A stretch of 64,000 nucleotides of DNA, taken from Gammaproteobacteria bacterium (GTDB lineage: Bacteria; Pseudomonadota; Gammaproteobacteria; Eutrophobiales; Eutrophobiaceae). A model generated the notes under the pieces. The model was not told where the DNA came from and did not search any database. It worked only from the letters and a program-made list of their open reading frames with translations. A program made the position numbers and the translations under genes. The DNA lies in NCBI GenBank assembly GCA_965240365.1, contig OZ251218.1:3022378-3086377 (forward strand). Direction: 5' to 3'. Within the stretch, counting starts at the first letter, position 1. Each line of letters begins with the position of its first letter. This document shows positions 34,749 through 63,140 of the stretch, one piece after another.

Positions 34749-34750
34749 TA

Positions 34751-36483: not shown

Positions 36484-36694
36484 TTTTGCGTCATGGACAA
36501 AATCACGCCGCTTCCATTTCGCTACCGTTGCGGGGTTCAGGTCTGCCTGCTGCAGGCAGGTTATAGCGCTTCGCCAATTTGGCTATGCTCTCTTGACTAT
36601 TTTGTATTGCTCGACGCACCACCTCAGTCGTTGTGGCGCTGCCGTGTAGTATTTGGCCCATAGCTCCTCCTTTGTTGGTATAGCAGAATAACTT

Positions 36695-42018: not shown

Positions 42019-42500
42019 GTGGATTCAACCAGCAAGTGCAACATTAGGATTGATTCGGAAGCTCTGAATAAATCCATCCTGGACTTACCTGCCTGCAGCA
42101 GGCAGAGCTTCAAAATCAATGACTTACGTCATTAATTTTGGCGGTACGTCCCTGTGCCGCAGGAAGCTCTGATTCAATCAGAGCTTCCGTTCCGAAAAAT
42201 ACCTGATTAGGTGTTTTCATGTCAAGGCATTTTCGGGGTCGGTTATTTAATTTATCCATAGCCATTTTAATCTCCTGTTCAGTGATGGTGGTAAAGTCTC
42301 TGTCCTTGGAGAAGTATTGGCGTATCAGGTCGTTGGTATTTTCGTTGAGTCCACCTGCCTGCAGCAGGCAGGCGTTGCCAGGAGGCATAGGCCTGCCCGC
42401 TGCAGGTGGGGGTGGGCGAAATAAAAGGTCGCATTGAGTGCTTTGGCAATGGTCTGATGGCGCGCAAACTCCCTCATGGACCCCGATGTGCTGGCCAAAC
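42019..42500 (-). pseudogene. IS30-family copy 2, 3' fragment with a 136-bp MITE-like insert
   Basis: IR GTGGATTCAACCAGCAAGTGCAAC; insert 42057..42192 bounded by GGAAGCTCTGA direct/inverted repeats; two extra hairpins at 42354 and 42392 absent from copy 1. Confidence 0.55.
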
Positions 42501-42789
42501 AATCGTGTGATGCGCGTAGCAAAGGTTAGATGCTGTCTCTCAATGACGTTTCCGATGGGCTGTCTGCCCTCGCGGCCCCTATTCTCAATACGAAAGGGGA
42601 CTTAATTGCGGCCGTTTCGCTTGGGGGGCTGACCCCGCAGATAGATACGGGATCACCACCTGATTTGCTGGCACCGCTGTTGGATTGCACCCGTGCTCTG
42701 AGTGCGTTCTACCAGAGTCAGGGGGATAATCTTCCGCTATAGTTCACTTAATGAAATTATAATTGCATATTGACATATTTTCGATGCAC

Positions 42790-43268
42790 TCCTAAATTCT
42801 TACGTGAATTCAACTCGTAAGTGCAACTCATGACTCGGAACAGGAGGCGAGCTGCGTTAGTATCTCTGTTTTTTGTTCTGGCAAGAATGAGAAGCATTGA
42901 TGAGACAAAATACACACAGCTCACCCAGAGGAGCAACGATACCCGATTTACCTGCCTGCAGCAGGCAGGCGCCCTTATGAAAGCAGGTCATAATCAAACT
43001 GAGATAGCCCGTATTCTTGAGGTTCACAAATCCACTATAAGCCGTGAGTTGAGGCGCAACCGTGGCCTGCGCGGCTATCGTCCGCAGCAGACTGAACAGT
43101 TGGCCGTGACCCACCTGCCTGCATTGCCAGAAGCGGCGCAGGAAGCGCTGCGGTCCTTTAGCCGCCGTGGCCAGTGGTCTGGCCGCGTTTCCATTGATGA
43201 GCGACCCGCCATCGTCGACAGGCGTGCCCGATTGGGCGACCTGCCTGCAGCAGGCAGGATGAGATGGT
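42790..43268 (+). pseudogene. IS30-family copy 2, 5' fragment (opposite orientation), truncated by IS110
   Basis: MKAGHNQTEIARILEVHKSTISRELRRNRGLRGYRPQQTEQLAVT...; ~190-bp internal deletion replaced by half-hairpin (43113..43123); ends at hairpin 43250..43268 where IS110 copy 2 begins. Confidence 0.55.
43250..43268. repeat. 19-bp hairpin abutting IS110 copy 2 left end
   Basis: CCTGCCTGCAGCAGGCAGG|ATGAGATGG; the equivalent hairpin (mutated arm) abuts copy 1 at 5257..5275. Confidence 0.8.
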
Positions 43269-44665
43269 CACCTCTTGTTGCGCGGCGTCTGAAGCGCCAA
43301 AATGAAGTTTTTACTTAACCTAAATGCACAAAAGAGGTGTCCGAGATGAAAGTGACTCTAATTGGTATTGATTTGGCAAAGACTATTTTTCAAGTGTGTG
43401 GAGTGAATCAGGCCGGCAAGCCGGTGTTTAACCGGACGATACGGCGTGCGGGGGTTCGAATTACTGGGGACGTGAGTTGCAGAAGCGGGGCTATGAGGTG
43501 AAGCTGATTCCGCCGCAGCATGTGAAGCCGTTTGTAAACCTGCCTGCAGCAGGCAGGGGGGAACAAGACCGACCGTCATGATGCCCTGGCGATTTGTGAG
43601 GCGGCCGGTCGTCCTGAGTTGCGGTGTGTTATGCCTCGCAGTGTTGAGCAGACCGACCGGCTGCTGGCGCACCGGCTGCGCCCTGCCTGCAGCAGGCAGG
43701 GAGCAGGCCGTAGGCGGGCGTACCCGGTTGGTGAATCAAATGCGGGGGTTATTGCAGGAGTATGGCGTGGTGTTGCCCAGGGGAAGGGGGCGCTGGAAAC
43801 GGGCGCTGCCGGCCTTGCTGGAAGACGGTGAGCATGGCTTGACAGTTACCTGCCTGCAGCAGGCAGGGGGGCCGTCGCTATCTCGGCATGCCGTGGGCCG
43901 AGTGGCAGGCGCTGGATGTGCGTATTGCGGAGTTGGAGGAGGATATTAAGGCCTAGGTCAAGCAGGATGAGTCGGCGCGGCGTCTGACGGGCATCAAGGG
44001 GGTGGGGCCACTGATTGCCAGTGCGGCCGCCTGCCTGCAGCAGGCAGGCCACTATGCGGCCAATCTGGGACTGGTGCCCAGAGAGCACTCCAGTGGCGGC
44101 CGCCAACGGCTGGGAGGGATTACCAAACAGGGTAACCAGTATCTGCGCCGCCTGCTCGTCCAGGGGGCCTGGTCGGTCTTGCGCTATGCCGACCGCAGTG
44201 AAGACCGGCTGTCACGTTGAGCCAGACAGGTCACCTGCCTGCAGCAGGCAGGTGGCTCGCATCGGCAAGCATAAGGCGGCGGTGGCCGTGGCCAACAAAC
44301 TGGCCCGCATCATCTGGTCAATGCTGTATCACGGCGCCGAGTACCGGCCGGCCTGAGACACGCTCAGGCCCGTTTGAGACAGGAGTAGAACGTACCCACC
44401 ATAGGTTGCGATGAAGATATGAAGTAACATCTTAGACCTGCCTGCAGCAGGCAGGCCGGCCCCTGAAACGCTGGCTTACCCGACTGCAGCAGGCTTACCC
44501 GACTGGGCTGAAAAGCCCGAAGGCACGATAGAGCGACAGGGGCGCGGTTCTCATTGAGGCCCGGGGACAATGATTCCCCAACACAGAGGCCGGATAGTCG
44601 TATGCAGTCTTATTTTACCGTTACTGAATAATCAGCTTGCAAACTACGAGGTGTACATATAGGTC
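43269..44665 (+). mobile_element. IS110-family element copy 2 (transposase 43346..44340 disrupted)
   Basis: Left end ATGAGATGGTCACC directly after hairpin; same architecture as copy 1 but without IS630, with a different set of hairpins/deletions. Confidence 0.6.
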
Positions 44666-44733
44666 AGGAACAGGCCGCCGAGGAATCCAGTGGTTGATAC
44701 AACACATTCCCGCATCAGCGGGAATGACCATTT

Positions 44734-47588
44734 CTAATAAATCTGTTCAGCATCCTCCCCCCCGGCCAGAACAGGCACCCTGTCTTTCACCTTGTCCGAT
44801 CGCCGTGATGCGACCGGTTTAATCGGCCCCATATCAGCCTTCTTCAAATTAACCGCGCAGAACTTGAACTCGGGTATCTTGCCAAACGGGTCAAGCTCTT
44901 CATTGGTAATCAGATTGGCCGCGGCCTCGTTGAAGCTGAAGGGCATCATCACCACGCCCTCCAGGATATGTTCATCGGCGCGGGTGGCCACCGCGATACT
45001 GCCGCGGCGTGACTGGATCACGAGTTTGTCCCCGGTTGTGAGGCCGAATTTACGCAGATCTTTGGGGGTTGACCATGACGCACGGCCCCGGTTCCAGCGC
45101 GTCCAGCACCCGCGAATGGCGGGTCATTGTGCCCGTGTGCCAGTGTTCAAGCTGACGGCCGGTGACAAACACATAGGGGAAATCGCTGTCGGGCAGTTCG
45201 GCCGCTTCGGTGTATTCGGCCGGCACAAACCGGCCGCGGCCGTCCGCTGTCGGAAAGACGCCATCCTTGAATATCACCGGCTCGCCGGGATCGCCTTCTT
45301 TTTTCAAGGGATAAGTCAGCGAATCTTCCCGTTCCAGCCTGTCCCAGGTCATGCCGGCCATGCTGGGCACGGCCTTTCTGATCTCCGCGAAGACTTCCTC
45401 GGGGCCGGCATAGTCCCAGTCCAGGCCGATGCGCCTGGCCAGTTGCTGGATGATCCAGAGGTCCTGCCTGGCCTCGCCGGGCGGCTTGATGGCCTGCCGG
45501 CCGATTTGCACGCGCCGGTCGGTGTTGGTAAAGGTGCCTGTTTTTTCGGGGAAGGCCGTGGCCGGCAGGATGACATCCGCGTAGCTGCAGGTCTCGGTAA
45601 AAAATATGTCCTGAATCACGCAATGCTCAAGCCGGGCGAGGGCGGCCCGGGCATGGTGCAGGTTGGGATCGGACATGGCCGGGTTTTCACCCATGATATA
45701 CAAGCCCGTCAGATCGCCGTCATGGATGGCGTGCATGATCTCGACCACGGTCTTGCCCGGTTTCGGGTCCAGTTCCGCGCCCCCAAAGCTGCTCGAATTT
45801 TTCCCTGTTCCGGTCAACCGATACGGGCTGGTAGTCGGGGTAAACCATCGGGATCAGGCCCACGTCGGAGGCGCCCTGCACGTTATTCTGCCCGCGCAGC
45901 GGGTGCAGGCCGGTATTGGGCCGGCCGATCTGGCCGGTCAGCAGGGCCAGGGAAATCAGGCAGCGGGCATTGTCGGTGCCATGCGTATGTTGCGAGATGC
46001 CCATGCCCCAGAAGATGATAGCGCTCCCGGCCGTGGCATAGGTCCGGGCGATCTCCTTGATGCGTTCGGCCGCGACACCGCAGATCGGCGCCACCGCCTC
46101 CGGGCTGTACTTGAGCGCGGTTTCCTTGAGGGCTTCAAAGCCGTGTGTATGTTCAGCAATAAATTTTTGATTATGCAGCTTTTCGCTGATGATGGTGTGC
46201 ATCATCGCGTTTAATAACAATACATCCGTGCCGGGCCGAAGCTGAACCAGATAATTGTTGTGCAAATACATCTCGGAGCCGTAGGGTTCGATCAGGATCA
46301 GGCGGCTGCCCCGCTCAACGGCATTTTTCATAAAGGTCGCCGCGACCGGATGGTTATCGTTCGGGCGCGCGCCGATGACGATAATGACTTCCGCCCGGGC
46401 GCCGTCGGCGACCTGGTTGGACACCGCGGCCGAACCGATGGTCTCCAACAGCGCGGCGACGGAAGAGGCGTGACAAAGGCGCGTGCAGTGATCCACGTTA
46501 TTGGTGCCAAACCCGGCGCGCACCAGCTTTTGCACCAGATACGCCTCTTCATTGCTGCCCTTGGCGCAGCCAAAGCCGGCCAGCGCCCGCGGCCCCTGCT
46601 TATCCCGAATGCGTTTGAGGCCGCCGGCGGCAAAATCCAGCGCCTCGTCCCAGTCAGCTTCACGAAAATAGCGGGACACGTCCGCGGGCTTGATCAGGGC
46701 CGGCGTCTTGGCCGCGTCCCTGCGCCTGATCAGGGGCCGGGTCAGGCGATCCGAATGATGCACATAATCGAAACCGTAACGGCCCTTGACACACAAGCGG
46801 CTCTTGTTGGCCGGCCCGTCGCGCCCCTCGACATACTGAATCCGGTTGTTTTTGACATTAAAACTCAACAGGCAACCCACCCCGCAATAGGGACAGGCCG
46901 ATTCCACCTTTTTATCCGGCTTGACCAGGCCCACCTTGCCGGCCGGCATCAGCGCCCCGGTCGGGCACGCCTGCACGCATTCACCGCAGGCCACGCAGGT
47001 GCTCTCGCCCATCGGCGCGGCCATATCGAACACGATTTTTGATTTATTGCCGCGAAAGGCATAGCCGATCACGTTATTGACCTGTTCCTCGCGGCAGGCC
47101 CGGACACAGCGGGTGCATTGAATACAGGCGTCCAGATTGACGGCGATGGCCGGATGGGAGAGATCGGGTTCAAGCGGTTTGCGCTGTTCAAAGCGCGGCT
47201 TGTGAACCTTGAGCCGGCCCGCCCAGTAGTCCAGTTCCGATTGCAGGCGGTAAGGCGACTTGCCCTGCTCCGGCATATCGGCCAGCAATAGCTCAATGAC
47301 CATCTTCTGCGAGCGCAGCGCCCGTTCATTATTACTTTCGACCTTCATCCCCGCCGTCGGCTGCCGACAGCAGGAGGGCGCCAGCGCCCGTTCGCCTTCA
47401 ATCTCGACCATACAGGCGCGGCAATTACCGTCAGGGCGGTAGCCTTCCTTGTAGCATAAGTGAGGAATATCGATCCCGTTACGCTTTGCGGCCTGCAATA
47501 TCGTCTCTTCTTCATAGGCCAGGATGTCGCGGCCGTTGAGGCTGAAACGTGTGAGCGCGTCATACATGAACTTCGGATTTGCAGCCAT
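44734..47588 (-). CDS. fdsA: NAD-dependent formate dehydrogenase alpha subunit (FdsA); two apparent +1 frameshifts in G5 runs
   Basis: N-terminal 2Fe-2S/4Fe-4S (CYKEGYRPDGNCRACMVEIEG, CIQCTRCVRAC, CVACGECVQACPTGA), Mo-bisMGD domain (CPYCGVGC...HCTRLCHASS, Cys not Sec); three track ORFs (45720..47588, 45050..45817, 44734..45021) join if single G is removed at 45780..45784 and 45064..45068. Confidence 0.7.
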
Positions 47589-49375: not shown

Positions 49376-49559
49376 GCGCCGTGTTTATTTCACCCCTATC
49401 GTTAATGGTTATGAATTATGACCACAACGTCATCATAATTTCAGGCCGCCTGTTTTTAATTCAGTATTCGGCGGACAACCGATAGAAACGAACACCATCC
49501 GCAATCCTATCTGGCGTCAATTTGTATTGACGCCCATTAAGACTTCATTTTTGTAATTA

Positions 49560-50340
49560 TAACCGATTTGGCATGTATTGCTTGATTTTGTTGCGTCATT
49601 TATCCAACGCCGTCATTCCGGCCCATCGCAGAGGCAGGCGAAAGTCGGAATTCCAACCGGCACGGTAGGGCAGGCAGAGCCGGAATCTATTTCACATCCC
49701 GGCAGACCTTTCCTGGATTCCAGCTTTCGCTGGAATGACGACGGGGGCAGGAATGAAAAGACAGCAGGGAGTCAAAAGGAGCGGGAATAACAGAGGCCAG
49801 AATAACTTTGAAGGTCAACGGGCCGTATCTATCACCTACGTCGTCATTCCGGCGAAGGCCGGAATCCAGTGGCTTATGTCATACATTCCCGCTTAAGCGG
49901 GAATGACAATCAAATGCGTTATTTCAACCGGCACGGTAAAGCAGACAGAGCCAGAATCCATATCACATCCCGGCAGACCTTTCCTGGATTCCGGCCTTCG
50001 CCGGAATGACGACGAGGGAGTAAATAACAGAGGGGGTCTGAAAGATACCCGGCTACGCCCCTGCCGTCATTCCGGCCGGCACGGTAAGGCAGGCAGAGCC
50101 GGATTGCATTTCGCCCCCCGGCCCCGCCCTCCTGGATTCCAGTTTCCGCTGGAATGACTACGGGGGTGGAATGGAAAAGAGGGCAGAGGACCAAAAGGAG
50201 CGGCAGTGACAGAAGCCGGAATAACATTGAAGACCAACGAGCCGTATCTATCACCTACGTCGTCATTCCAGCGAAAGCTGGAATCCAGTGGTTTATATAC
50301 TACATTCCCGCGCAGCGGGAATGACAACAGAGGAGGGCGG
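49560..50340. repeat. Composite intergenic repeat array (two ~419-bp higher-order units)
   Basis: Hairpins of three kinds: ATTCCCGC-N4-GCGGGAAT, TCATTCC(A/G)GCGAAAGC(T/C)GGAATCCAGTGG, TGGATTCCAGCTTTCGCTGGAATGACG. Confidence 0.7.
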
Positions 50341-50352
50341 GAATAACGAACC

Positions 50353-51174
50353 TCAACGAGGTTGCAATATCAATATCTCCCCCTTCCCATTCAGGGCCAG
50401 ATCGCCGCTATAACGGTGTGCGACCGGCTGTTGCCGGCTGAATAACGCCAACTCGCCGCCCATATTCGCCAATTGGGTAAATAACAGGCGCAGAAACTGC
50501 ATTTTCAGATGACCGCAGCTTTTGAAGGTGGCGGACAGGCTGGCCGGTTTTTTGGCGAGTATCAGGCTGCCCCGGCGCATCCCGGCGGCCGGGTAGCGGC
50601 CGGCCTTGTCGAGGATAATCACCGTGCCGGCATGCATACGGCTGGCGCAATAGTCGCCCGCCTTGCCGCGGATGATAATGATCCCGCGCCGCATGCGATC
50701 CGCCACGCGATCACCGGCGCGGCCGCCGATATTTATCATGCCGCCGCTCATGCCAAACAAATCCCCCGGCCGTCCGGCGCCGGCATAGTCCCCGGCATTG
50801 CCGTCTATATCAATCCGCCCGCCGGCCAGCCCGCTGCCCGCCCAGGCCCCGGCGTCGCCCCTGACGCGGATACATCCGCCCGCCATGCCCCGGCCGAGCA
50901 AATCACCCACGTCGCCTTCCACCTCGATGCCGCCGCTTTGCATCCCCTGGCCCACGCCGCTCAATTTGTCACAGCTTTTTGCTATCTTGATCCGGCCGCC
51001 GGGCCGCCCCGTGAGCTTAAATAAATCCGCAACGCGGGCCGTTTCTCCGCCGTAAACCAGCCTGATGCCTTTGATCGCGGCCAGTGTCTGGCCTGCCAGC
51101 TTATCCGGTGTCAGCACCGACATATCCAGCCGGTATTGCGGCGCGTGTTTCAGGCTAAGGGTCAGCGCCGTCAT
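50353..51174 (-). CDS. fhcC: Formyltransferase/hydrolase complex subunit C (FwdC-like)
   Basis: 273 aa; tandem GxxGxxxG beta-helix repeats. Confidence 0.8.
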   Translation of the reverse strand: MTALTLSLKHAPQYRLDMSVLTPDKLAGQTLAAIKGIRLVYGGETARVADLFKLTGRPGGRIKIAKSCDKLSGVGQGMQSGGIEVEGDVGDLLGRGMAGGCIRVRGDAGAWAGSGLAGGRIDIDGNAGDYAGAGRPGDLFGMSGGMINIGGRAGDRVADRMRRGIIIIRGKAGDYCASRMHAGTVIILDKAGRYPAAGMRRGSLILAKKPASLSATFKSCGHLKMQFLRLLFTQLANMGGELALFSRQQPVAHRYSGDLALNGKGEILILQPR

Positions 51175-52067
51175 TTTAACAACGCCCGCAGATGGAACAG
51201 ATGCGGCCCCAGATGCCCGCCATAGTGGCCCGCGCTGATGCGATAAATGCCTTTGGCGGGGCCAAACGAGCAGGCGGCGCGAATCCCGGCGCGCATTGCC
51301 CTGTTGATGGCCGCCTCGTCAAGACCGTCAATCACGATCTCAAGCACCGAGCCGATCTCGGGGCTTAACGCCGTTTTAACCTGTCCCTTGAGGGTAGGGC
51401 AGTAGGCCTCGTTGGTTGAAGCCGTGAGGAATTTATATTTTGAGCCGACTTTTGAGCCGGAACCGACCACCCCGCCGGGGAAGGCCGTGATCACGCCCGG
51501 CACCTGGCGGATGGCGGCAACGGCCTTTTCACAGGCCGCGAGGCCATGCCGGGCGGTTTTGGCCAGCACCAGAAAATTACCGCCGCCGATGGCGCCGGTC
51601 ACGCCGGTGGATTCTTCACAGATAAATTCGCCGTGCATGACCGGGATCCGCCAGTAACGCCGGCCATTAATGAGCTTTGAAATCTGGTAGCCGTCGCCGA
51701 AAAAACGCAGGTGTTTGCCCATGGGGATCTGTTTTTCACTGTCGAGGCCGGAGTAGCAGGCCGTGGTGGCCGTGGTCATTACCGACTGCCCGACCCGCGT
51801 GGGCACCTGTTTTTCCAGATCTTTGGTGGACATGGTAAACAGCATGACCGCGATGCCCGGCCGCCCGTCCGGGGTCTCGGCCGGTTTTAATTCCCGCTCA
51901 ATATCGGCCTCAATGCCGCAGGCGATGACCGAGGAGGCAAAACCGCGAATGGCATTGGCCGCCAGATAGGCCCATTTTAAGGTCATCGCGGTAATGATGA
52001 TGCGCGTGGCCTTCATCGGGAAGGCTTCGGCAAAGGTGTCATCAATGACTACGCCGTTGATCTTCAT
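51171..52067 (-). CDS. fhcD: Formylmethanofuran--tetrahydromethanopterin formyltransferase (Ftr-like) FhcD
   Basis: Start at MKINGVVIDDTFAEAF; ~298 aa typical Ftr. Confidence 0.85.
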   Translation of the reverse strand: MKINGVVIDDTFAEAFPMKATRIIITAMTLKWAYLAANAIRGFASSVIACGIEADIERELKPAETPDGRPGIAVMLFTMSTKDLEKQVPTRVGQSVMTTATTACYSGLDSEKQIPMGKHLRFFGDGYQISKLINGRRYWRIPVMHGEFICEESTGVTGAIGGGNFLVLAKTARHGLAACEKAVAAIRQVPGVITAFPGGVVGSGSKVGSKYKFLTASTNEAYCPTLKGQVKTALSPEIGSVLEIVIDGLDEAAINRAMRAGIRAACSFGPAKGIYRISAGHYGGHLGPHLFHLRALLK

Positions 52068-52071
52068 GCCT

Positions 52072-53727
52072 TCACGCGCAGGGTTGAACGATGACCCGGC
52101 TGTTGCCATGTTCCATGATTTCAGCCTCATCAATCTTGAAATTAGCCAGCGAAACGGTCTGGTAATCGGCAAAATAACGCTTTAACGATCGCTCTATGCC
52201 GCGGTCGAATTCCGGCCGCAAGGTATGCGTCGCGCCATTGACCACCCGGCTGATCCTGCCGTTGCGCACGATCAATTCCCCGTCCTTGAACACATAATCC
52301 GGCCGGCCAAACATCTTCTCCTTATCGGCCTGTTCGCTGTAAACCGTAATATCGGCCACGGCCCCGGCCCCCAGATGCCCGCGGCTCCTGAGTCCCAGGC
52401 TCCTGGCCGGCGCGGCCCGGGTCATAATGGCGATCTCGTACAGGGAATATTCACGATCAATACCGGCCAGTGTGCTGGCCCGGGCGGCGGCCGGGTTTAT
52501 CGTGCCCAGCATCTCGTTTCTGAAATGGCGATCCATGAGCAGGCGGATCAAATGCGGGTAACTGGTAAAAGGGGCGCCGTTCGGGTGATCGGTGGTCAGG
52601 AACACGCGCCACGGGTCATCCACCAGCAGGAACAACTCCAGGCCAATGGCCCATTGCAGCGCATTCACAAAATTTTTGTCGCGGTACTTGAACGGCACGA
52701 CCCCGCAACCCGCCTCGCATTCAATATCCATAATGAGCCATTTGTCCGGGTGGGCATGTTCATGGCCGGCGTATTGCAACATCGAGTCGCCGGATACCGT
52801 CACCGTTTGCCCGAACAGGATTTGCCCCACATCAATGGAAATATTCGGGTTTTTATTCACCGCCTCGGCAATCCCGGCGGCGGCGGATGAAAACTTTCTG
52901 TCACCCTCGCTGCCGTAGCTGTGAAACTGGATATGGGTCAGGTGCAGCGGCCTGCCCTCGGCCGCGGCAATGGTGGCCAGCGTGGTGGCGGCATTGCCGG
53001 GCACGCCCAGGTTGCAGCCGTGCACATGCAGGGGGTGAGGAATGCCCAGTTCGGTCACGGCCCGGCTGAGCGCGATCACGATTTCCCTGGGCGATACGCC
53101 GTAATGCGGGTTGCGTTCATCCAGGTCCAGCCGCCGCTGATTAAACTTGAACGCGCTGATGCCGCCCGGATTCACCACCTTGATCGCCAAAGCCTGGGTC
53201 GCGTTGATGATCCAGCCCACGTAATCGTTGATCAGGGCCTGATCTTTCTTTGCCGCCAGCAGCCGCAGAAAAAAATCATCATTGCCCAGCATGGCATAAG
53301 CCCCCTTGTCAACCATCGGCGTGTCGGCCATTTCCATATGCGTCTGCCTGGCGTTGGCGGGCAGCATGGCAGGTTCGAAACAGGCCGTATAGCCCATCTC
53401 GGCATAACGATAACCGGCGGTGAAGGTTGAAGGCGCGGCATGGCCGCAGCCCGAGCGCGTGAGTTTTGTCCGGTTGACCGGGTCAGCCGCGTGGTCCTCC
53501 GGCAACATCATGCGCGCCAGATTGACCTTGCCGCCGCCGATATGGGTGTGGATATCAATGGCCCCGGCCATGACGATCCTGCCCTTGAGATCAAGCCGCC
53601 GGCCTATCCTGGCCCCGGCCGCGGGCTCAGGGCAGATAAGGCCGTCCCGGATATACAGATCCCGCCGCTCGCCGTTAATACCGTGCGCCGGGTCATAGAC
53701 CCGCCCGTTCGCCAGTTTGGTGTACAT
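52072..53727 (-). CDS. fhcA: Formyltransferase/hydrolase complex subunit A (FwdA-like amidohydrolase)
   Basis: 551 aa from MYTKLANGRVYDP; metal-dependent hydrolase fold (DIHTHIGGG); start overlaps fhcB stop (TAATG). Confidence 0.85.
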   Translation of the reverse strand: MYTKLANGRVYDPAHGINGERRDLYIRDGLICPEPAAGARIGRRLDLKGRIVMAGAIDIHTHIGGGKVNLARMMLPEDHAADPVNRTKLTRSGCGHAAPSTFTAGYRYAEMGYTACFEPAMLPANARQTHMEMADTPMVDKGAYAMLGNDDFFLRLLAAKKDQALINDYVGWIINATQALAIKVVNPGGISAFKFNQRRLDLDERNPHYGVSPREIVIALSRAVTELGIPHPLHVHGCNLGVPGNAATTLATIAAAEGRPLHLTHIQFHSYGSEGDRKFSSAAAGIAEAVNKNPNISIDVGQILFGQTVTVSGDSMLQYAGHEHAHPDKWLIMDIECEAGCGVVPFKYRDKNFVNALQWAIGLELFLLVDDPWRVFLTTDHPNGAPFTSYPHLIRLLMDRHFRNEMLGTINPAAARASTLAGIDREYSLYEIAIMTRAAPARSLGLRSRGHLGAGAVADITVYSEQADKEKMFGRPDYVFKDGELIVRNGRISRVVNGATHTLRPEFDRGIERSLKRYFADYQTVSLANFKIDEAEIMEHGNSRVIVQPCA

Positions 53728-55013
53728 TATGCCTTTGCCCCGAGGCCGTCCGTCACCCTGGCCAGCAGCGCGCTGACGCTGAGGCAATCCGAATGCCGGA
53801 CCTGCTTCAGCGGCAGGGCCACCACATTATCCATGCGAAACAACTGCCCGCCGTGATCCACGCCGGGGGTGGCGACCGGGACAAACACCTCGGGCGTGAA
53901 ATCGAGCCGGGTATCCGGGGTCGCCAGCACGATCACGGGCATATCCGCGCGCGGCAGATCATGGGCCGGGCTAAAACTGGATACCCAGACAAGCGCGTCG
54001 GCCTCCCGGTTTTTCAGCACATTATCTATTGAGTAGCGGTGCGCGTCATAATCCGGGTAACCCTTATTAAAACTGACCCGGAGCGGGTAGCCGCTTTGCC
54101 ACGCGCAGATCGTATTGGCCGTTACAGCGCCATCCGCGCCGCTCAACGGCAGGCCGGCAAAGCGGGTGAACCGCGTCAGACACTTCACCAGCCCGCAAAG
54201 ACTCTGAATCGTGAGTTCGGCATGAGGAATATCCAGATCGGCGGCCGACCAGACGAGGACGCCATAACGCGCGGCCTTCATTTTTTCCGCGAGAGCGCGC
54301 AGGGCTTCCAGTTTTACCCCGGCCACTGCATCGGCGTCAATATCAGCGCCCGCGACCAGGGCGCGCAGGGTCGAGACAAGCTCGCCAATCTGCCCGGTCC
54401 TGCACGGCAACAGGGCAGGGGGCCGGCCGTTCGGGCCGATGCCGGGCCGGGTATTCAGCCCGGCGCCGATATAGACCAGCTCGCGCTTCTTTCCGGTCTT
54501 AAACAGCGCCTTCTGATTCCAGACCAGCCGTTCATAAAAACGCGGATAACGGTCGGCATCGGCGCCGGCAAAAACGATCAAATCGGCCCGGTTCCTGATC
54601 TCGGCCAGACTGGTGGTAATCCAGCCCTGCTCCTGCAAGACCAGGGTATTGCGGCTCAACGCGGCGCCGTGCATGTGGTCCAGTATGGCCCCGGTCCGGT
54701 CCGCGAGCCGCATCACCTGACGCATCCCGGCGGCGTCAACGCCAAGCCCGGCGATGAGCGGCGTGCGGGCATTTTTCAGGATCCGTTTTATTTCAGCAAC
54801 GGCCGCCCTGGTTGACGCCTTCTTGCCTTTAATTTGCGGATAATTCTCAACGGGCGCCTTCTGAAAACCGGCCCTGGCCTGCTGGCAGCCGTTTTCCAAC
54901 ACCACAAGCCGCCCGCGCTCATTCCGGACTGTCAGATCATCACACAGCATGGCGCAAAAAGGGCAAGTCACGCCACGGCTGATCTCCGGGATGCTGTTTA
55001 CTGTCTTCTCCAA
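53727..55013 (-). CDS. fhcB: Formyltransferase/hydrolase complex subunit B (FwdB-like)
   Basis: 428 aa; N-terminal Cys cluster CPFCAMLCDD; molybdopterin-oxidoreductase-like fold. Confidence 0.8.
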   Translation of the reverse strand: MEKTVNSIPEISRGVTCPFCAMLCDDLTVRNERGRLVVLENGCQQARAGFQKAPVENYPQIKGKKASTRAAVAEIKRILKNARTPLIAGLGVDAAGMRQVMRLADRTGAILDHMHGAALSRNTLVLQEQGWITTSLAEIRNRADLIVFAGADADRYPRFYERLVWNQKALFKTGKKRELVYIGAGLNTRPGIGPNGRPPALLPCRTGQIGELVSTLRALVAGADIDADAVAGVKLEALRALAEKMKAARYGVLVWSAADLDIPHAELTIQSLCGLVKCLTRFTRFAGLPLSGADGAVTANTICAWQSGYPLRVSFNKGYPDYDAHRYSIDNVLKNREADALVWVSSFSPAHDLPRADMPVIVLATPDTRLDFTPEVFVPVATPGVDHGGQLFRMDNVVALPLKQVRHSDCLSVSALLARVTDGLGAKA

Positions 55014-55199
55014 TGGAAATACCTTCCTTATTATTTTTCACACCCGACCGGCCGGGCCACCTCTCCGGCGACAGATATAAATTGAGATCGGTATGAAATG
55101 CAAGAAGAAATAGTAAAGTATTTGCGAAATCGGGGGGTGGCAGATAGGTGGGTCGGAATGATAGGGCGGCAGGAAGGCGTTAAAGGCTGCCGGGATTTA

Positions 55200-56110
55200 C
55201 CTATTGCCTACGCCGGAATGACGACGAAGGAGTAAATAACAGAGGGGGGTCTGAAAGATACCTGGCTATGCCCCCACCGTCATTCCAGCGAAAGCTCGCC
55301 TGCATGGATGCAGGTGGTAGAGCGGCGTCAGGAACAGGCCGCCGAGGAATCCAGTGGTTTATACAATCCATTCCCGCAAAGCCCTGCCTGCAGCAGGCAG
55401 GGGGAATGCCATTTTGACTGGTTTGGTACACGCAGACAGGGCCGGATTCTATTTCGCTCCCCGGCATCGCCTCCCTGGATTCCAGCTTTCGCTGGAATGA
55501 CGTCAGGGGCGGGAATGAAAGAGATGGAAGAGTACCTAAAAGGAGTGGCAAGAAACAAAAAGCCTCGTCATTCCGGCCTTCGCCGGAATGACGACGAGGG
55601 AATAAACAACAGAGGGGAGTCTGAAAGATACTTGGCTACGCCCCCACCGTCATTCCAGCGAAAGCTGGAATCCAGTGGTTTATACAATCCATTCCCGCAA
55701 AGCGGGAATGCCATTGTGGTTGGTTTGGTACAGGCAGACAGGGCCAGATTCTATTTCGCTCCCCGGCATCGCCTTCCTGGATTCCAGCTTTCGCTGGAAT
55801 GACGTCAGGGGCGGGAATGAAAGAGATGGAAGAGTACCTGAAAGGAGTGGCAAGAAACAAAAAGCCTCGTCATTCCGACCTTCGCCGGGCGGCTACGGGC
55901 ATCCTGCCCTCACGCCACATACAGGACATCCTGTCCATAAATGACGACGAGGGAGTAAACAACAGAGGGGGGTCTGAAAGATACCTGGCTACGCCTCCAC
56001 CGTCATTCCAGCGAAAGCTCGCCTGCATGGATGCAGGTGGTAGAGCGGCGTCAGGAACAGGCCGCCGAGGAATCCAGTGGTTTATACAATCCATTCCCGC
56101 AAGGCGGGAA
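55200..56110. repeat. Composite intergenic repeat array between fhcB and autotransporter
   Basis: Same unit families as 49560..50340, ~300-bp higher-order periodicity; one ATTCCC..GGGAAT hairpin carries the 19-bp palindrome in its loop (55383..55401). Confidence 0.7.
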
Positions 56111-56115
56111 TGACA

Positions 56116-59100
56116 TCAAAACTCCCACATAAACCCAACTTGCGCATGCACCCCCAGATCCGCCTTCGAGCCGTAGCGGGCCTCAATATTGGCGCTGAAG
56201 GTCAGCTTCAGGGCCGGCACGACATAGTCGAAGCCCGCCCCCATAAAGCCCGTCACGGCCTTGCCGCCGCCGGCCCTGAACTTGACATCCTGGCCGTCAA
56301 GCAGGCCGCGCACCGTGTCCCCGCTAAGGCGGGCGCGGCCCTCGGCTCCGACCCGGAGTTCGCCGCTAAGCTGGCCCCCGTGAGCGTTCGCGGGAAAGCT
56401 CAGCGGCAAACCCAGGCTGGCGCGCGCGATGCCGATGTGTAAAGCCCGCTCGTTTATCCTGAACGCGGCGGCGCCCTCGGCCCGGCCTTCCGGCTGATAG
56501 GCATAGGCTTCTGTAAACAGGCCCAGATAACGCAGCCGCAACGCCGGGCGCAGCGTCACGCCATTGAAATCAAAGCGGGTGGCAAGCCCCACTTCAGGGT
56601 TGATAAAGAGGCCCGAGTAATCGGTCTGTATGCGTTCGGTCCCGTCTATAGCCCGGTTATTGGCCTGTTGCCACGTGGAGCGGAACTTGCTCCGGCCGAG
56701 CATCAGGGCCACGTTCAGGTCAAGGTTATCCCGGCGGGTGGCGGCCCAGACGCCCGTGAATATGCTCTCGCTGTCTTCATCGCGGGCCGGGCCGCTGACC
56801 TCGACCACGCTGCGGGCCGCGCCCAGAAAGAACCCGGCCCCGGCCTCCGCGCCAATGGTCGAGACGCCCGCCAGACCGCCCCCGTAACGATGCCGGGCGG
56901 GCGGCATGAAGCGCCCGTCCCGTTTGAACCGGTGCAGACCGCCAAAGGGCCTGGCCCAGAGCGCCCTGCGCTTGTCCCCGTCCTCGCCTTGCCCCGGGCT
57001 GTTGATATGACTTTGCCCCTGATGAGTGAGCGCCTCCGAGACCGCGCCCGTCCACTGACTCAGAGCCGCATCGCCGAGCGTGTGGATGGTCGGGTCCAGG
57101 ATGGCCACGGTCGTTTCCGCCTTCCCGAACTGGTTTGAGCGGCGGGTGCCGCGGAGCACGGGCCGGGGGCCGGCTTCAATGGCAAAGCGCGTGGGTTCGG
57201 TCCCGGCCGGGGCGTCGTTGTCGGTCAAGGTAAACTGGGCCGCGCGCGCGGGGATGTATTGCAGGGTATCGCCCGCGCCGTCCCAGTGGATATTCCCTAT
57301 CAGGGTGAAGTTATCGCGCAGGATCAGGCGATCCCGGCCCTGGCCTCTGAGCATCAGGGCGTCGCCCGCCGTGCCATCCAGCGAGCGCAATATACCGGCG
57401 TGATCAATCGTCGTGTCGCCGGCCCGCGCGCGCTCGACCAGGATGCCGGTCTTGCCCTCGATCGTGCCGCCTTTTTTATTAAGCAGCAGCTCAATGGCCC
57501 CGCGCGCGAAAATGCCGCGCGCGGTCTTGCCACCCGCGATGCGGCCGCTGTTCTCAAGCCGCCCGCCGGCGCCGAGCGAGAGGCCCGCGCCGGTCTTGCC
57601 CTCGATCGTGCCGCTGTTAGTCAGCGTGTTGATCGCGCCGCGCGCCAGAATGCCGTTGTCTCCGCCCGCGATCCTGCCGGTATTATCAAGGTTGCCGATA
57701 GAGGCGGCCATGACGCCGTTGCCTTTGGCAGATTCAATCGTGCCGCTATTGTCAAGCCGGGTAATCGGCCCGGCCGCGAGGCCCGCGCCCGTGCCGCCCG
57801 CGATGCGGCCGCTGTTTTCCGCGAGGCGGATGGTGTTTGGGCCATAATCCGCCCCGGCCGCGCCGCCTTCGATCGTGCCCGTGTTTTTCAGCGTGGCGAG
57901 GCCGGAGACCATGCCGCTGAGTTTGATGCCTTCATTGGCCTCGCCGCGGATCGTGCCGCTGTTGTCAAGATTCAGGATGTTGGCGGCCTCAATGCCCACG
58001 GCGCCGCTGGTAATGGCCGCGCGGCGGCCGTTATTTTGCAGGCGGGTGATCAGCCCGGCCTTGAGCGCCGCGCCGCGGCCGCCGCGGATTGTGCCGCTGT
58101 TGTTCAGGGTGTTGACCGCGCCGCGCGCCAGAATGCCGTTGTCCCCGCCCGCGATCCTGCCGGCGTTGTCGAGGCGGCCGATGGAGGCGGCCATGACGCC
58201 GTTGCCTGCCGTAGATTCAATCGTGCCGCCCGCCTTGTTGTCGAGCCGGGTAATCGGCCCGGCCGCGAGGCCCGCGTCCGCGCCGCCCGCGATGCGGCCG
58301 CTGTTTTCGGCCAGGAGGATGGCGTTTTGGCCATAATCCGCCCCGATCGTGCCGCCCTCGATCGTGCCCGTGTTTTCCAGCGTGACAGGGTCGGGGGCCG
58401 TGCTGCTGAGTCTGATGCCTTCACTGGCCGCGGCGCCCCTGGGGATGGCCGCGCGCCGGCCGTTATTCGGCCCGGCCTTGAGCGCCGCGCCGCGGCCGCC
58501 GCGGATTGTGCCGCTGTTGTTCAGGGTGTTGACCGCGCCGCGCGCCAGAATGCCGTTGTCTCCGCCTTCGATCCTGCCGGCGTTGTCGAGGCGGCCGATG
58601 GAGGCGGCCATGAGGCCGTTGCCCGCGGTGGATTCAATCGTGCCGCCCGCCTTGTTGTCGAGCCGGGTAATCGGCCCGGCCGTGAGGCCCGCGCCCGTGC
58701 CGCCCGTGATGCGGCCGTTGTTTTCGGCGAGGCGGATGGCGTTTTGGCCATAATCCGCCCCGGCCGCGCCGCCCTTGATCGTGCCTGTATTTTTCAGCGT
58801 GACGGGGCCGGGGGCCGTGCCGCTGAGCTTGATGCCGTTGTCTCCGCCTTCGATCCTGCCGGCGTTGTCGAGGCGGCCGATAGAGGCGGCCATGACGCCA
58901 TTGCTTGCGGTGGATTCAATCGTACCGCCCGCCTTGTTGTCGAGTCGGGTAATCGGCCCGGCCGTGAGGCCCGCGCCCGTGCCGCCCGCGATGCGGCCGC
59001 TGTTTTCGGCGAGGCGGATGGCGTTTTGGCCATAATCTGCCCCGATCGTGCCGCCCTCGATCGTGCCCGTGTTTTCCAGCGTGACGGGGCCGGGGGCCGT

Positions 59101-61554
59101 GCCGTTGAGCTTGATGCCTGTACTGGCCGCGCCGCGGATTGTGCCGCTGTTGTTCAGGGTGTTGACCGCGCCGCGCGCCAGAATGCCGTTGTCTCCGCCT
59201 TCGATCCTGCCGGCGTTGTCGAGGCGGCCGATAGAGGCGGCCATGAGGCCGTTGCCTGCCGTGGATTCAATCGTGCCGCCCGCCTTGTTGTCGAGCCGGG
59301 TAATCGGCCCGGCCGTGAGGCCCGCGCCCGTGCCGCCCGCGATGCGGCCGCTGTTTTCCGCGAGGCGGATGGTGTTTTGGCCATAATCCACCCCGGCCGC
59401 GCCGCCCTTGATCGTGCCCGTGTTTTTCAGCGTGACGGGGCCGGGGGCCGTGCCGCTGAGCTTGATGCCTTCATTGGCCGTGCCGCGGATCGTGGCGCTG
59501 TTGTCCAGGCGGCCGATGGAACCGGCCTGGATGCCGCGCTTCCTGCCCGCGATTTCGCCGCGGCCGGTGTTGGCCAGGGTTCTGATATGGCCCGAGACAT
59601 TCAGCCCCTCACTGTTTGTTCCCGACCCTTCGCTTTCGATCCTGCCGCTGTTGTTCAGGTCGCCAATCGACGCGGCCCTGACGCCGCTCTGAACGCCCTT
59701 AATGACGCCTTTGTTTGTCAGTTCGTCGATTGCGCCATCCGCGCGGACGCCGTCCGGGCCGCTCCCGGAGATCTCGCCATCGTTCTCAAGCCTGCCGATC
59801 CGGTTTTCGGCATGAACGCCAAGATTGCCCGAGATCGTGCCGTCTTTTTTATTGATCAGGGTATTGATAGTCCTGGCCTTAACCCCCCCATTGCCGCCCG
59901 AGATCTCACCGTTGTTCTCCAGGCCGCCGAGTTCAGACCCGCCGATCCGGTCTTCGGCATGAACGCCAAAATTGCGCGAACCCGAGATCGTGCCGTCTTT
60001 TTTATTGATCAAGGTATTGATAATGCTGGCCTTAACCCCGCTATCGCCGCCCGAGATCTCACCGCTGTTCTCCAAAACCCCGTTATCACCATTTGAGATT
60101 TTACCGCTCTCCAGGCGGCCGAATGCAAGCGTGCCGATCCGGTCTTCGGCGTGAACGCCAAAATTGCGCGAACCCGAGATCGTGCCGCCTTTTTTATTGT
60201 TTAAGGTGGTGATAACCTTCGCCTTAACCCCGCCATCGCCACCCGAGATTTCGCCGCTGTTCTCCAGCCGGCCGAGCGTTTCTGTTACCGTGACGCCCCT
60301 GTTGCTGGTGCTCTCCCCGGCGGCGGCGCCCTGAATTTTACCGCCCGCCTTGTTCTTCAGCAGGTCGATGGCGTTTGCGAATACGCCGGTTTGGCCTTCA
60401 ATCTGGCCGCTGTTGTCCAGCTCGGCGATGGAGGAAGCGGCATGGAGGCCGTGAGCGCCGCCCTTGATCGTGCCGCTGTTCGTCAGTTTTTCGCTGGCTA
60501 TGGTCCCAGAAGTGAGGCGGATGCCGGCATGACCGGCGCCGCCCTCGATCCGGCCGCTTTTTTTATTGCTCAGTTCCGTGCCGATAGAACCCGCCCTGAT
60601 GCCGTCACGCGGGCCCTGAATGAGGCCAGTTGCCTCATTGGTCAATGTGTCGATGGCGCCGCTGCCTATCAGGCCGAAGCCCTTCCCTGCCTCAGGGTCG
60701 CCGGTATTGGTTCGGCCGAGTATTTTACCGGCGTTGCTAAGCGTGCCGATGCTGCCGAAAACGATGCCGTTTCCGGATGTCGATGTAATTTCGGCGTCCT
60801 TTTCGTTGCTCAGCTTGTCGATTTTGCCACCCGTGGAGATGGCCGCCTCAATATTGCCGATTAGCTCGCCCTGGTTGGTCAATGTGCCGATGGAGGCGGC
60901 TTTAACGCCGAAAGTAATTCCCGTGATGGTCGCAGTCGCTGTCCCGGTCGCTTCGTTGCTCAGGTTTTCAATACGGCCGCGGGCCAGAATAGCGCGTTCG
61001 GATTCAATCTTGCCGCTGTTGGTCAGCGTGGTTATACTGCCTGTAGTGTTAATACCGAAATCAGTAGCGTCAATCGTGCCGCTGTTTTTCACCTCGCTAG
61101 ATGGAATTGGCGAAAAAACCGACAGTCCCTTTCAAAGTGCCCCTGTTGTCCAGTCCAGATATTGCTGGCGTTCCCAGAGACAGCAATTATTTTCTCTCAC
61201 GCCAAAGACGGGGCCTCCAACTGCAGTAATTGTAACGCCGGGCAACACGATCAGGGTTTCGTTATCTTTGAGAGTATTTATTTGCCTTCCGTCTTTATCT
61301 ATCGTGATATTTTTACGCTCCACCGCTAACGGGGACAGAGGCAGCGCCAGCAGCAGCGCCAGAGACAGCGGGCAGAGACAGCGCCCGGCGGCGCGCCCGG
61401 GCCGGCCATGCCCCGGCCTCTGTCCCCCTGCCTGTCGTCGGATTTGAATCAATAGGGCCTGCAACATCATCTCTCTCGCATATGGCCGGAAGGCGTTATG
61501 TGGATAGTTTGTATCGGTCAAGCGCCACGGTCCGCGCTTCATTTCCGGGCGCAA
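56116..61554 (-). pseudogene. Giant autotransporter adhesin (1812 codons) with in-frame TGA near N-terminus
   Basis: C-terminal autotransporter beta-barrel ending ...AQVGFMWEF; passenger with >=6 near-identical ~115-135-aa tandem repeats (...LDNKAGGTIESTAGNG(L/V)MAASIGRLDNAGRIEGGDNG...); signal-peptide-bearing N-part (61135..61554) in same frame, separated only by TGA at 61132..61134. Confidence 0.75.
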
Positions 61555-61589: not shown

Positions 61590-61940
61590 TTTGACCCCCG
61601 CCGCCCGTTGCTACGCCACCCCCACCGTTACGTTGCCTGGTTTGGTGTTGGCGGGTAAAAAGAACGTCATTCTAACTGGCACGGTGAGGCAGAAAGCGCC
61701 GGGTTCCGTTTCACACCCCGGCGCCGCCCTCCTGGATTCCAGCTTTCGCTGGAATGACGACGGGGCGGAAATGAAAAAACGGAAGAGTATCTAAAAGGGG
61801 TGGCATTGAACAAAAAGCCCCGTCATTCCAGCGAAAGATGGAATCCAGTGGTTTATACAATCCATTCCCGCAAAGCGGGAATGCCATTTTTCCCATGAGT
61901 CCCTCCGTCCTGTCATACCTGCCTGCTTACAACAGGCAGG
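61590..61940. repeat. Intergenic repeat array
   Basis: TCATTCCAGCGAAAGATGGAATCCAGTGG, ATTCCCGCAAAGCGGGAAT and a long-loop hairpin variant CCTGCCTGC-TTACAA-CAGGCAGG. Confidence 0.6.
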
Positions 61941-61970: not shown

Positions 61971-62783
61971 TCATTTCCCAACATACAAAAGAATTTCGCC
62001 CCGGTTTAATTCAACGGCGTCGCCGCACCAGCGTTCGAAGCGGCCATCAAGCAGGCGTTCGCCGGTATGGATGCCAAGCGCGTTCAGGTAATGGCAGAAA
62101 TGCCTTAGAAAGGTGGGCCGGTATTGGCAACTGAGGCCGAAACTGGGCAGCATTTCGGCCTTGTTCAGGCAGATAATGGAGCCGCGCTTCATCCCGGCGC
62201 CGGCGCGAATGCCCATTTCACCCAGGACAATAATGGTGCCGGCCAGCATATTGACCCCGGTAAAATCGCCGCTGTTGCCGCCCACCACGATCAGGCCGCG
62301 GCGCATGACATGGCCGGTCTCGTTTTTGACATTGCCATGCACGATGATCTCGCCGCCCTGCATGCCCGCCGCGCTGCCGCGGTAGCCGCTGCCGGTCATG
62401 TGCCCGGCATTGCCCCGGACGGTGATCCGGCCGCCCTGCATCTCCGCCCCGAGCCAGTCTCCGGCGTTGCCCTCGACCACGATCTCGCCGCCGCGCATGA
62501 CCGCCCCGGTATGCAGCCCGACATCCCCCGCGATGGTTATTTGGCCGCAGGACATGGTTGCGCCGATATGCTTGACCGCGGACAGATCGCCGTCAATCTC
62601 GATATGGCCGTCAAAATGGCCCCGGCAATCGAAAAAATCGCCCAATTCAGCCTGACGGTTGCCATGCAGGACGGCGAGCCTGGCAATGGCCGGGTTATCC
62701 AGCGGCTTGAACCGGTCCGGGCAGATACAATCCGCTTCCAGCGGCGCCTCCGGCCTGGTATGCAGTTTGAGTTTCAGGGTCAT
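61971..62783 (-). CDS. Second, divergent FwdC/FhcC-like beta-helix protein
   Basis: 270 aa, GxxGxxxG repeats; ~35% identity by eye to fhcC at 50353. Confidence 0.7.
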   Translation of the reverse strand: MTLKLKLHTRPEAPLEADCICPDRFKPLDNPAIARLAVLHGNRQAELGDFFDCRGHFDGHIEIDGDLSAVKHIGATMSCGQITIAGDVGLHTGAVMRGGEIVVEGNAGDWLGAEMQGGRITVRGNAGHMTGSGYRGSAAGMQGGEIIVHGNVKNETGHVMRRGLIVVGGNSGDFTGVNMLAGTIIVLGEMGIRAGAGMKRGSIICLNKAEMLPSFGLSCQYRPTFLRHFCHYLNALGIHTGERLLDGRFERWCGDAVELNRGEILLYVGK

Positions 62784-62789
62784 GTCGTG

Positions 62790-63140
62790 GGTTTCAGGAT
62801 TTGGTTGATGACGGGTATTTTATTCTGTCTGGCACAGTACAGACAGACAGAACCGGGTTTCATTCCAATCCCCGGCATAGCCTTCCTGGATTCCAGCTTT
62901 CGCTGGACGGCTACGGGCATCCTGCCCTCTCGCCGCATACAGGACATCCTGTCCATAAATGACGACGGGGGTAGCAGGTGTATTCCGGCAATCTTCAATG
63001 TTATTGTCAACCGACCCGTTGTTCCAGCCCGCCGATGTTCTCACCAACCCGTCATTCCGGCGAAGGCCGGAATCCAGTGGTTTTTTTCAATACATTCCCG
63101 CGTAAGCCCTGCCTGCAGCAGGCAGGGGGAATGACAATTA
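62790..63140. repeat. Intergenic repeat array
   Basis: ATTCCCGCGTAAG[19-bp palindrome]GGGAATGAC at 63090..63135 plus GGAATCCAGTGG hairpins. Confidence 0.6.

Follow-up and report, generated by a model that had tools for sequence, protein, structure and literature searches.

The window examined here, a 64-kb stretch of contig OZ251218.1 (assembly GCA_965240365.1) from an uncultured gammaproteobacterium, carries genes of one-carbon metabolism whose intergenic spacers contain clustered hairpin repeats. The flanking genes are fdhA/fdhB-like genes, an fhcCDAB operon, a second fhcC/fhcD pair (fhcC′ and fhcD′), and the gene of a repeat-rich protein of 1658 amino acids; the C-terminal 361 amino acids of this protein match the autotransporter beta-domain (PF03797, E = 2.4e-13; the match was obtained with the fragment alone, whereas a Pfam scan of the whole protein missed the domain). 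The gene layout is as described in a preliminary description made from the sequence alone, with repeat arrays bracketing the autotransporter gene and the duplicated fhc genes, and all arrays lie between minus-strand genes. Hairpins built from a few types form six blocks in the window (Table 1). Four intergenic blocks and the window edge had been listed previously, all of them are real and contain the hairpins reported for them, and the sixth, the truncated doublet of Table 1, had been overlooked.

The vocabulary of these blocks reduces to a single oriented hairpin, called H1 here, and its variants H2 and H3. H1, CGTCATTCC[A/G]GCGAA[A/G]GC[T/C]GGAATCCAG, is an oriented unit of 28 nt with a CGTC head, an 8-bp stem, a 4-nt GAAA or GAAG loop, and a CCAG tail; folded as single-stranded DNA, the 8-bp stem and 4-nt loop reach −7.8 to −8.9 kcal/mol (z = −4.5 to −5.3). 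H2, GTCATTCCCGC-N3/4-GCGGGAAT, corresponds to the first hairpin type of the preliminary description, and H3 (GTCATTCCGGCCTTCGCCGGAATGAC) is the fully palindromic form, a 13-bp perfect palindrome. What had been taken for a second and a third hairpin type is H1 in its two opposite orientations, and the supposed fourth type (GGTGGTAGAGCGGCG...) is not a hairpin of its own but a 49-nt insert (I1) within H1. Allowing up to two mismatches, the pattern GTCATTCCNGCN4GCNGGAAT has 17 matches in the window, all within the six blocks, against 0.04 expected from shuffles. The formula ATTCCC-N8-GGGAAT of dRS3, a neisserial inverted repeat of 20 bp to which the first type had been compared, fits the hairpins at 44706 and 49885, whereas the remaining ATTCCCGC hairpins have a 7-base interval; H1 itself carries ATTCC[A/G] and so falls outside the literal formula.

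A closer assignment follows from the orientation of the unit and from its flanks. The repetitive extragenic palindromes (REPs) of bacteria have been sorted into GTAG- and CGTC-tagged super-families, and in family CGTC-1, to which the Neisseria dRS3 belongs, a CGTC head precedes a stem of 8 bp that begins with AT, the loop has 4 nt, and the tail is CCA (Di Nocera et al., 2013; PMC3733652). The head, stem length, loop length, and tail of H1 agree with this definition, and its copy number amounts to 17 units in the window and more at other loci of the same species; the units thus occur beyond this region, and the condition under which the preliminary description would have doubted a general NIME-like role, their restriction to this region, does not hold. 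About half of the dRS3 copies are part of a longer oriented sequence, NTS (CGTCATTCCCGCGMAVGCGGGAATCYRG), which is the target of SsnA, a single-domain GIY-YIG nuclease of 94 amino acids that binds NTS only in single-stranded form and cuts a few bases upstream; as a consequence of SsnA action, less NTS-bearing transforming DNA is integrated in Neisseria (Chenal et al., 2025; PMC11893778). Ssn homologs occur by the thousands in many bacterial phyla, flanked by related motifs (SRM) for which a degenerate pattern has been published (PMC11893778). This SRM pattern, HGTCWYN(0-2)YYVSBRHN(0-5)WNVSBRGN(0-2)RNCYNB, has 10 matches in the window where 0.31 are expected (100 dinucleotide shuffles); nine are in the arrays, and the tenth, at 44984 in coding DNA, is probably due to chance. 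The NTS consensus with up to three mismatches is found at 10 sites, each with two or three mismatches (0 expected), and the two constant mismatches occupy both sides of one stem pair and are compensatory (C-G changed to G-C or A-T). All intact H1 copies read CGTC-ATTCC...GGAAT-CCAG, with the oriented flanks of SRM and NTS in place. The pattern matches and the constant two-mismatch stem pair identify H1 as an SRM/CGTC-1 hairpin and not a strict NTS.

The proposed kinship with dRS3 and the intergenic mosaic elements of Neisseria (NIMEs) is therefore real, and stronger than had been argued: 26 of 28 positions match the oriented NTS form of dRS3, and the match takes in the non-palindromic CGTC head and CCAG tail. 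The better homolog is the TCATTCCRGC...GGAATCCAG hairpin, however, and not the ATTCCCGC type. Nor is a dRS3-like repeat outside of Neisseria the oddity it had seemed; CGTC-tagged REPs and SRMs have been described as widespread (PMC3733652; PMC11893778), and the arrays accordingly belong to a known class. The blocks are best understood as clusters of CGTC-tagged REP hairpins of family CGTC-1/SRM, the family of Neisseria dRS3 and NTS (probability about 0.8).

Within the blocks, the hairpins are arranged as inverted doublets with spacer modules of 50–115 nt between them, and modules of 52–114 nt recur across several blocks (families D4, D5, and D8); together they form mosaics between codirectional genes that resemble NIMEs and the bacterial interspersed mosaic elements (BIMEs). 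Of the higher-order units of 300–420 bp proposed previously, the repetition itself stands, but it consists of two-copy direct repeats at spacings of 419 bp (array A; 243 nt, 81% identical, with a unit of about 260 nt), 302 bp (188 nt, 95% identical), and 723 bp (166 nt, 97% identical); Tandem Repeats Finder reported no array over positions 49400–56300. A scan of the whole window at Rfam gathering thresholds returned two tRNAs only, with no match on the hairpins. Positions 15–61, in the window edge block, are matched at 91% by a metagenome locus (L237).

Table 1. Hairpin blocks, neighboring genes, and mobile elements in the window, and GIY-YIG genes at other hairpin loci (locus coordinates). 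A double colon denotes a hairpin interrupted by an insert; (+) and (−) give hairpin orientation.
Feature	Position	Strand	Remarks
Window edge block	1–125		H1(−) 17–63 with 19-nt I2 (34–52) in the loop; half ATTCCCGC hairpin about 111–125
Array remnant	5117–5252	+	CGTCATT fused to reverse-complement I3, followed by I2 and an I1-like unit
IS110-family copy 1	5253–7836	+	interrupted by IS630-like element and many I2; left end abuts 5′ half of I1
IS630-like element nested in IS110-family copy 1	6009–7028 (gene)		DDE_3
IS110-family copy 2	43235–44662	+	degenerate, 7 I2 inserts; right end abuts 3′ half of I1 inside H1 (44663)
Truncated doublet	44663–44728	+	3′ half of I1 (44663–44682), H1 3′ arm GAATCCAGTGG, spacer, ATTCCCGC-N4-GCGGGAATGAC hairpin (44706–44728)
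Array A	49609–50345		between fdhB and fhcC
Array A, H1(−)	49713–49740, 49984–50011, 50132–50159		third copy a variant
Array A, H1(+)	49842–49869, 50261–50288
Array A, H2 (ATTCCCGC type)	49885–49907, 50304–50325		tag on minus strand
fhcC-fhcD-fhcA-fhcB operon	50353–55013	−	between arrays A and B
Array B	55206–56115		between fhcB and autotransporter gene
Array B, H1(+)::I1	55278–55356, 56001–56079		I1 at 55297–55345 and 56020–56068
Array B, H2::I2	about 55370–55410		I2 at 55383–55401
Array B, H1(−)	55475–55502, 55777–55804
Array B, H3	55565–55594	−	followed by GGCTTTTTGT on coding strand; terminator-like, downstream of autotransporter gene
Array B, H1(+)	55648–55675
Array B, H2	55691–55712, 56093–56114
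Array B, H3::I3	55867–55947		I3 at 55889–55939
Autotransporter gene, repeat-rich	56116–61092	−	between arrays B and C
Array C	61665–61940		between autotransporter gene and second fhcC
Array C, H1(−)	61732–61759
Array C, H1(+) variant	61821–61848
Array C, H2	61864–61885
Array C, I2-like hairpin	about 61916–61940		longer loop
Second fhcC and fhcD	61971–62783 and 63151–63987	−	array D between them; fhcD cut by window end
Array D	62812–63135		inside second fhc operon, between fhcD′ and fhcC′
Array D, H1(−)::I3	62884–62966		I3 at 62907–62957
Array D, H1(+)	63050–63077
Array D, H2::I2	about 63094–63135		I2 at 63108–63126
I2, example sites	5508, 5633, 5776, 7411, 23155, 30917, 34388, 42354, 55383, 63108		in hairpin loops at 34, 55383, and 63108
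Gene of about 95-amino-acid GIY-YIG protein	L057 5181–5471; L038 396–683; L061; L096; L113		other genomes

The same hairpin is found far beyond this species. The exact 26-mer TCATTCCRGCGAARGCYGGAATCCAG occurs in at least 118 stretches of species-representative genomes from many phyla, among them Dehalococcoidia and other Chloroflexota, Desulfobacterota, Xanthomonadales, Gallionellaceae, KSB1, and Calditrichota. As a rule, the 26-mer forms an arm of an inverted doublet, and outside the hairpin the 118 loci have no DNA similarity to the window. They contain 188 perfect hairpins with an 8-bp stem, a 4-nt loop, and a GTC tag, with 14 stem sequences among them; CGTC forms the head of 85% of these hairpins and CCAG the tail of 92%. 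When the open reading frames (ORFs) of the 118 loci were clustered, no recurring transposase family, tyrosine or other, appeared near the hairpin, and the sole small hairpin-specific family was a protein of about 95 amino acids, encoded in five loci on the same 8-kb locus as the hairpin and consisting of a single GIY-YIG domain (PF01541, E about 1e-16). In locus L057, its gene lies between an inverted H1 pair, one hairpin of which equals window positions 55470–55502 over 33 nt; L038 has the same layout, with the hairpin directly flanking the gene. The L057 protein has at least 7,999 homologs, which are still 75–92% identical in records named Nitrospira, Sulfuricaulis, Immundisolibacter, and Rhodocyclaceae, mostly on short contigs. 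Such closely similar Ssn-like proteins across phyla, in combination with identical hairpins, suggest horizontal spread, and hairpin-ssn-hairpin may constitute a horizontally spreading, multi-copy unit akin to an insertion sequence (IS).

Several results weigh against assigning the window hairpins to this class as sites of a functioning nuclease. The strict NTS consensus has no exact match in the window. In Neisseria, SsnA requires three conserved bases upstream of the palindrome for cleavage and the C directly after it for binding, and its activity was abolished when the palindrome sequence was changed while the hairpin was kept (PMC11893778); since SsnA depends on the palindrome sequence and the strict consensus is absent here, any cognate enzyme must have shifted its specificity. 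A motif scan and a profile built from the five GIY-YIG proteins found no ssn gene in the window, where the only GIY-YIG match is UvrC (778–2652), and the profile likewise found none in five loci of a sister species (L119–L123) and three of the same species (L244–L246), the same-species loci L247–L249 being left out. As a caveat, the hairpins of the window could be orphans. According to Chenal et al. (2025; PMC11893778), 81% of the genomes in which SRMs number more than 200 have an Ssn homolog, and this figure, together with the local density of units, makes it rather probable that a cognate ssn exists in the genome. A literature search found no follow-up paper on Ssn.

The array content differs between strains, as the comparison proposed in the preliminary description now makes evident. 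In three loci of the same species (L247, L248, and L249), with genes 97.5–98.5% identical, every array differs from that of the window and from those of the other strains. The spacer between fhcC and fdhB holds two units in the window and in L249, and one in L247 and L248; the spacer between fhcC′ and the autotransporter gene holds one unit in the window and in L247, and 3.5 tandem units of 211 bp in L248 (L249 does not cover it); and the spacer between the autotransporter gene and fhcB measures 1103 bp in the window, 1107 bp in L247, 542 bp in L248, and 1022 bp in L249, with strings of modules that differ among all four versions. At the locus downstream of bioY, one of three strains lacks the unit of about 340 bp, a second has one copy, and a third has two; the window has a rearranged remnant. 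In the sister species, represented by scaffolds from Tara metagenomes with about 87% nucleotide identity, the same hairpins are found at intergenic sites that differ in part; the doublet following fdhA is retained, and one decayed unit occupies the site of array A. The arrays are hypervariable on a short timescale, and the gain and loss of whole units would fit unequal recombination or slippage. The spacer between fhcD′ and fhcC′ was 1.3 kb long in L247 (1579–1950) and contained a Zeta_toxin fragment, compared to 368 bp in the window. The fdhA-like gene (44750–47588) was also found to differ from its counterparts; its ORF of 622 amino acids (45720–47588) compares with 946–950 amino acids in relatives, and the short ORF could be due to a frameshift or an error of sequencing near 45720–45820, or mark a pseudogene.

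The identity of the repeats and their role can be weighed against other explanations. That the hairpins are chance palindromes or assembly artefacts is a negligible prospect, given that shuffles produce about 0 matches and that the same units recur in independent assemblies of related strains and of many phyla. The doublets invite comparison with REPINs, in which inverted REP doublets are copied by RAYT, a domesticated Y1 (IS200/IS605-like) transposase (Bertels and Rainey, 2011; PMC3116915); inverted doublets prevail here and in most of the 118 or more loci, the copies are clustered in BIME-like fashion, and one small nuclease-type gene is flanked by repeats. Yet the repeats carry CGTC as their tag where REPINs have GTAG, the published survey knows no dedicated transposase for CGTC-tagged REPs (PMC3733652), and the ORF clusters of the 118 hairpin loci offer in its place the GIY-YIG protein, a partner different in kind from a Y1 transposase. 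The tag and the lack of a recurring transposase led to the rejection of an origin by RAYT, which is very improbable. The CGTC-1 family accommodates the same features without difficulty, as its members share the head, the 8-bp stem starting with AT, the loop, and the tail, occur mostly as inverted pairs, and have no dedicated transposase; CGTC-tagged repeats were found mainly in Alphaproteobacteria, however, with large clusters in Neisseria and Wolbachia only (PMC3733652), in contrast to the clusters of a gammaproteobacterium described here. Within the CGTC-1/SRM class, the arrays could further be NIMEs in the original sense, in which the hairpins border families of RS elements of about 50–150 bp whose number in intergenic arrays depends on the strain (Bentley et al., 2007; PMC1797815). 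Hairpins surround repeated spacer modules of 50–115 nt at syntenic intergenic sites, with a repeat number that depends on the strain, and bracket an autotransporter of strain-variable length (1658 amino acids in the window, 1683 in L247, 1562 in L248, and at least 1470 in L249). The autotransporter gene is missing at this position in the sister species, where the fhc operons are adjacent and 321 bp apart (L119 4455–4776) compared to the 6975 bp of array, autotransporter gene, and array in the window, and in another relative a fragment of an autotransporter homolog adjoins fdhB (L123 89–612). An IS110-family element has inserted via a hairpin, and in Neisseria a phage-encoded transposase/recombinase targets dRS3. 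The autotransporter gene behaves as a variable island bounded by arrays. All the same, the dRS3 formula is matched at two sites only, NIMEs are defined within Neisseria, and a single variable gene permits no statistics; arrays of the original NIME kind are rather unlikely. The role of NIMEs in recombination and antigen mosaicism, moreover, is a hypothesis of the years 2000–2007; recombination promotion was never shown experimentally, and the only experimental result found, the lowered integration of transforming DNA by NTS and SsnA, points to restriction (PMC11893778). At the variable autotransporter locus, the fit with this idea is anecdotal.

Alternatively, the hairpins could function chiefly in RNA, where they would terminate or stabilize mRNA and so punctuate the fdh, fhc, and autotransporter transcripts. 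Every array separates genes that share a strand, and one array is located within an operon; terminator-like scores go to H3 with its U-tract (minus strand, 55594–55565) and to two H2 hairpins, and comparable roles of REPs are known from other bacteria. A T-run is missing from most units, however, and terminator-like sites are not enriched in the window (30, compared to 22.1 ± 4.5 expected); the number of units varies freely between strains, Rfam has no matching family, and termination leaves unexplained why the unpaired CGTC head and CCAG tail should be conserved across phyla. As the main function, an effect on transcripts is doubtful; as a side role of CGTC-1/SRM hairpins, it is possible.

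Three small elements of 49, 19, and 51 nt (I1, I2, and I3) interrupt otherwise intact hairpins without target-site duplication. I1 separates CTGGATTCC from AGCTTTCG in the window and in L247, whereas the orthologous hairpin of L248 is intact and lacks it; I3 lies between GTCATT and CCGGCG in the window and is missing from L247, as it is from the second copy within the window itself. The insertion points are fixed, between GCT and GGAAT for I1 and between GTCATT and CC for I3; both elements are exact presence/absence polymorphisms between strains of about 98% identity, and each can form two small hairpins. I2 is a 19-nt palindrome, CCTGCCTGC[A/T]GCAGGCAGG, with 36 copies in the window (positions 34–63126; 0 expected). 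Some are in hairpin loops, and most lie within transposase genes of the IS110, IS3, IS4, and IS5 types, accompanied by frameshifts; deletion of the 19-mers at three sites yields a continuous IS110-type reading frame, and one copy present in IS110-family copy 1 is missing in copy 2, a clean difference of 19 bp. Oriented by its central A, I2 is preceded by A at 19 of 26 distinct sites. The exact sequence was absent from the 123 loci examined before later same-species loci were added, which contain 1–3 copies per 20 kb or so; it also occurs in at least 120 unrelated metagenome contigs of 35–58% G+C, usually as a single copy. About 14% of the metagenome occurrences (17–19 of 125) are in SRM-type hairpins; of the 19 hits by context, about 17 proved on inspection to lie within such hairpins. 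A full-text literature search for the sequence string gave no occurrence. A sequencing adaptor or artefact was considered as the source of I2 and rejected, as I2 is polymorphic between IS copies, its removal restores reading frames, and it sits in hairpin loops of independent assemblies. A 42-nt unit containing I2 was observed in triplicate in IS110-family copy 1 (7568–7670) and as a single unit in copy 2 (44437).

The larger element connected with the hairpins is the IS110-family insertion sequence, of which both copies are degenerate. The protein reconstructed after removal of I2 matches DEDD_Tnp_IS110 (PF01548, E = 3e-18) and Transposase_20 (PF02371, E = 2e-14). At the truncated doublet, copy 2 has replaced the 5′ part; in relatives, including same-species strains, the doublet at the orthologous site is intact. 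Since the ends of the IS110-family copies abut the two halves of I1, the nesting order is hairpin, then I1, then IS110, and the element appears to target I1 inside an SRM hairpin. Other parts of the window (30450–36600 and 42100–43235) are densely occupied by degenerate insertion sequences (rve, DUF4372, DUF4096/DDE_Tnp_1_2), and this insertion-sequence patch includes a direct duplication of 886 bp (33866–34751 and 34745–35611). In E. coli, REPs and BIMEs likewise form mosaic clusters of extragenic palindromes, and REPs have been cited as targets of insertion sequences; IS1397 goes into REP loops, and IS621 of the IS110 family targets REPs. The E. coli repeats differ by their GTAG tag and RAYT partner, and the inserts described here have a length of 19–51 nt and are not full insertion sequences. 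Tentatively, one may propose a hierarchy of ultra-small mobile DNAs that use the hairpins as landing pads and leave no target duplication on insertion. If so, I2 would rank among the shortest mobile elements known, and a hairpin-specific enzyme acting on single strands would move palindromes of oligonucleotide size; Ssn itself, an HUH enzyme, or, in trans, a bridge-RNA recombinase would be candidates.

Compared with the Neisseria system of NTS/dRS3 and SsnA (PMC11893778; Bentley et al., 2007; PMC1797815), the shared features are the 28-nt oriented hairpin, the intergenic mosaics of strain-variable content adjoining a surface-protein gene, and the use of the hairpin as an insertion site, here by an IS110-family element. 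The differences lie in the altered stem pair by which the strict consensus fails, in the host, which carries fhc and fdh genes and has uncultured Gammaproteobacteria as its nearest named relatives, in the lack of a visible ssn gene, and in the nested inserts of 19, 49, and 51 nt, for which no description was found in Neisseria. If the systems studied so far are a guide, the unit would act as single-stranded DNA and would be bound in one orientation by a single-domain GIY-YIG Ssn of about 95 amino acids; this enzyme would nick the strand 5′ of the CGTC head, at a distance of a few bases, and, as in Neisseria, could restrict incoming transforming DNA. The mosaics change rapidly as whole units of 200–420 bp are gained and lost, most simply via unequal recombination or slippage between repeats, and the hairpins are also landing sites for I1, I2, I3 and, through I1, for an IS110-family insertion sequence. 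The sequences establish the class of the hairpin, its enrichment in the window, its presence in many phyla with ssn genes adjacent in some genomes, the strain differences in unit number, and the exact insertion polymorphisms. Since no ssn gene was seen either in the window or among those related loci that were searched, the action of Ssn on these sites is inferred, as would be any effect on recombination, on autotransporter expression, or on the fhc genes.

The hairpin class itself was known already; the turnover of arrays at the strain level and the duplication-free micro-insertions, especially the 19-nt palindrome, go beyond the literature consulted. Clustered mosaics of the NTS/dRS3 type, long regarded as a hallmark of Neisseria, are extended here to an uncultured bacterium with fhc and fdh one-carbon genes, with strain-level evidence for the gain and loss of entire units at a sequence divergence of about 2%. 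The exact insertions of 19–51 nt provide a testable handle on mosaic assembly, a question that both key papers leave open. For annotation, the arrays serve as markers of a variable autotransporter locus and of possible punctuation of transcripts within the duplicated fhc operon. On a wider scale, the identical hairpin adjoining ssn genes of 75–92% identity across phyla supports the idea that hairpin-ssn-hairpin units may spread horizontally.

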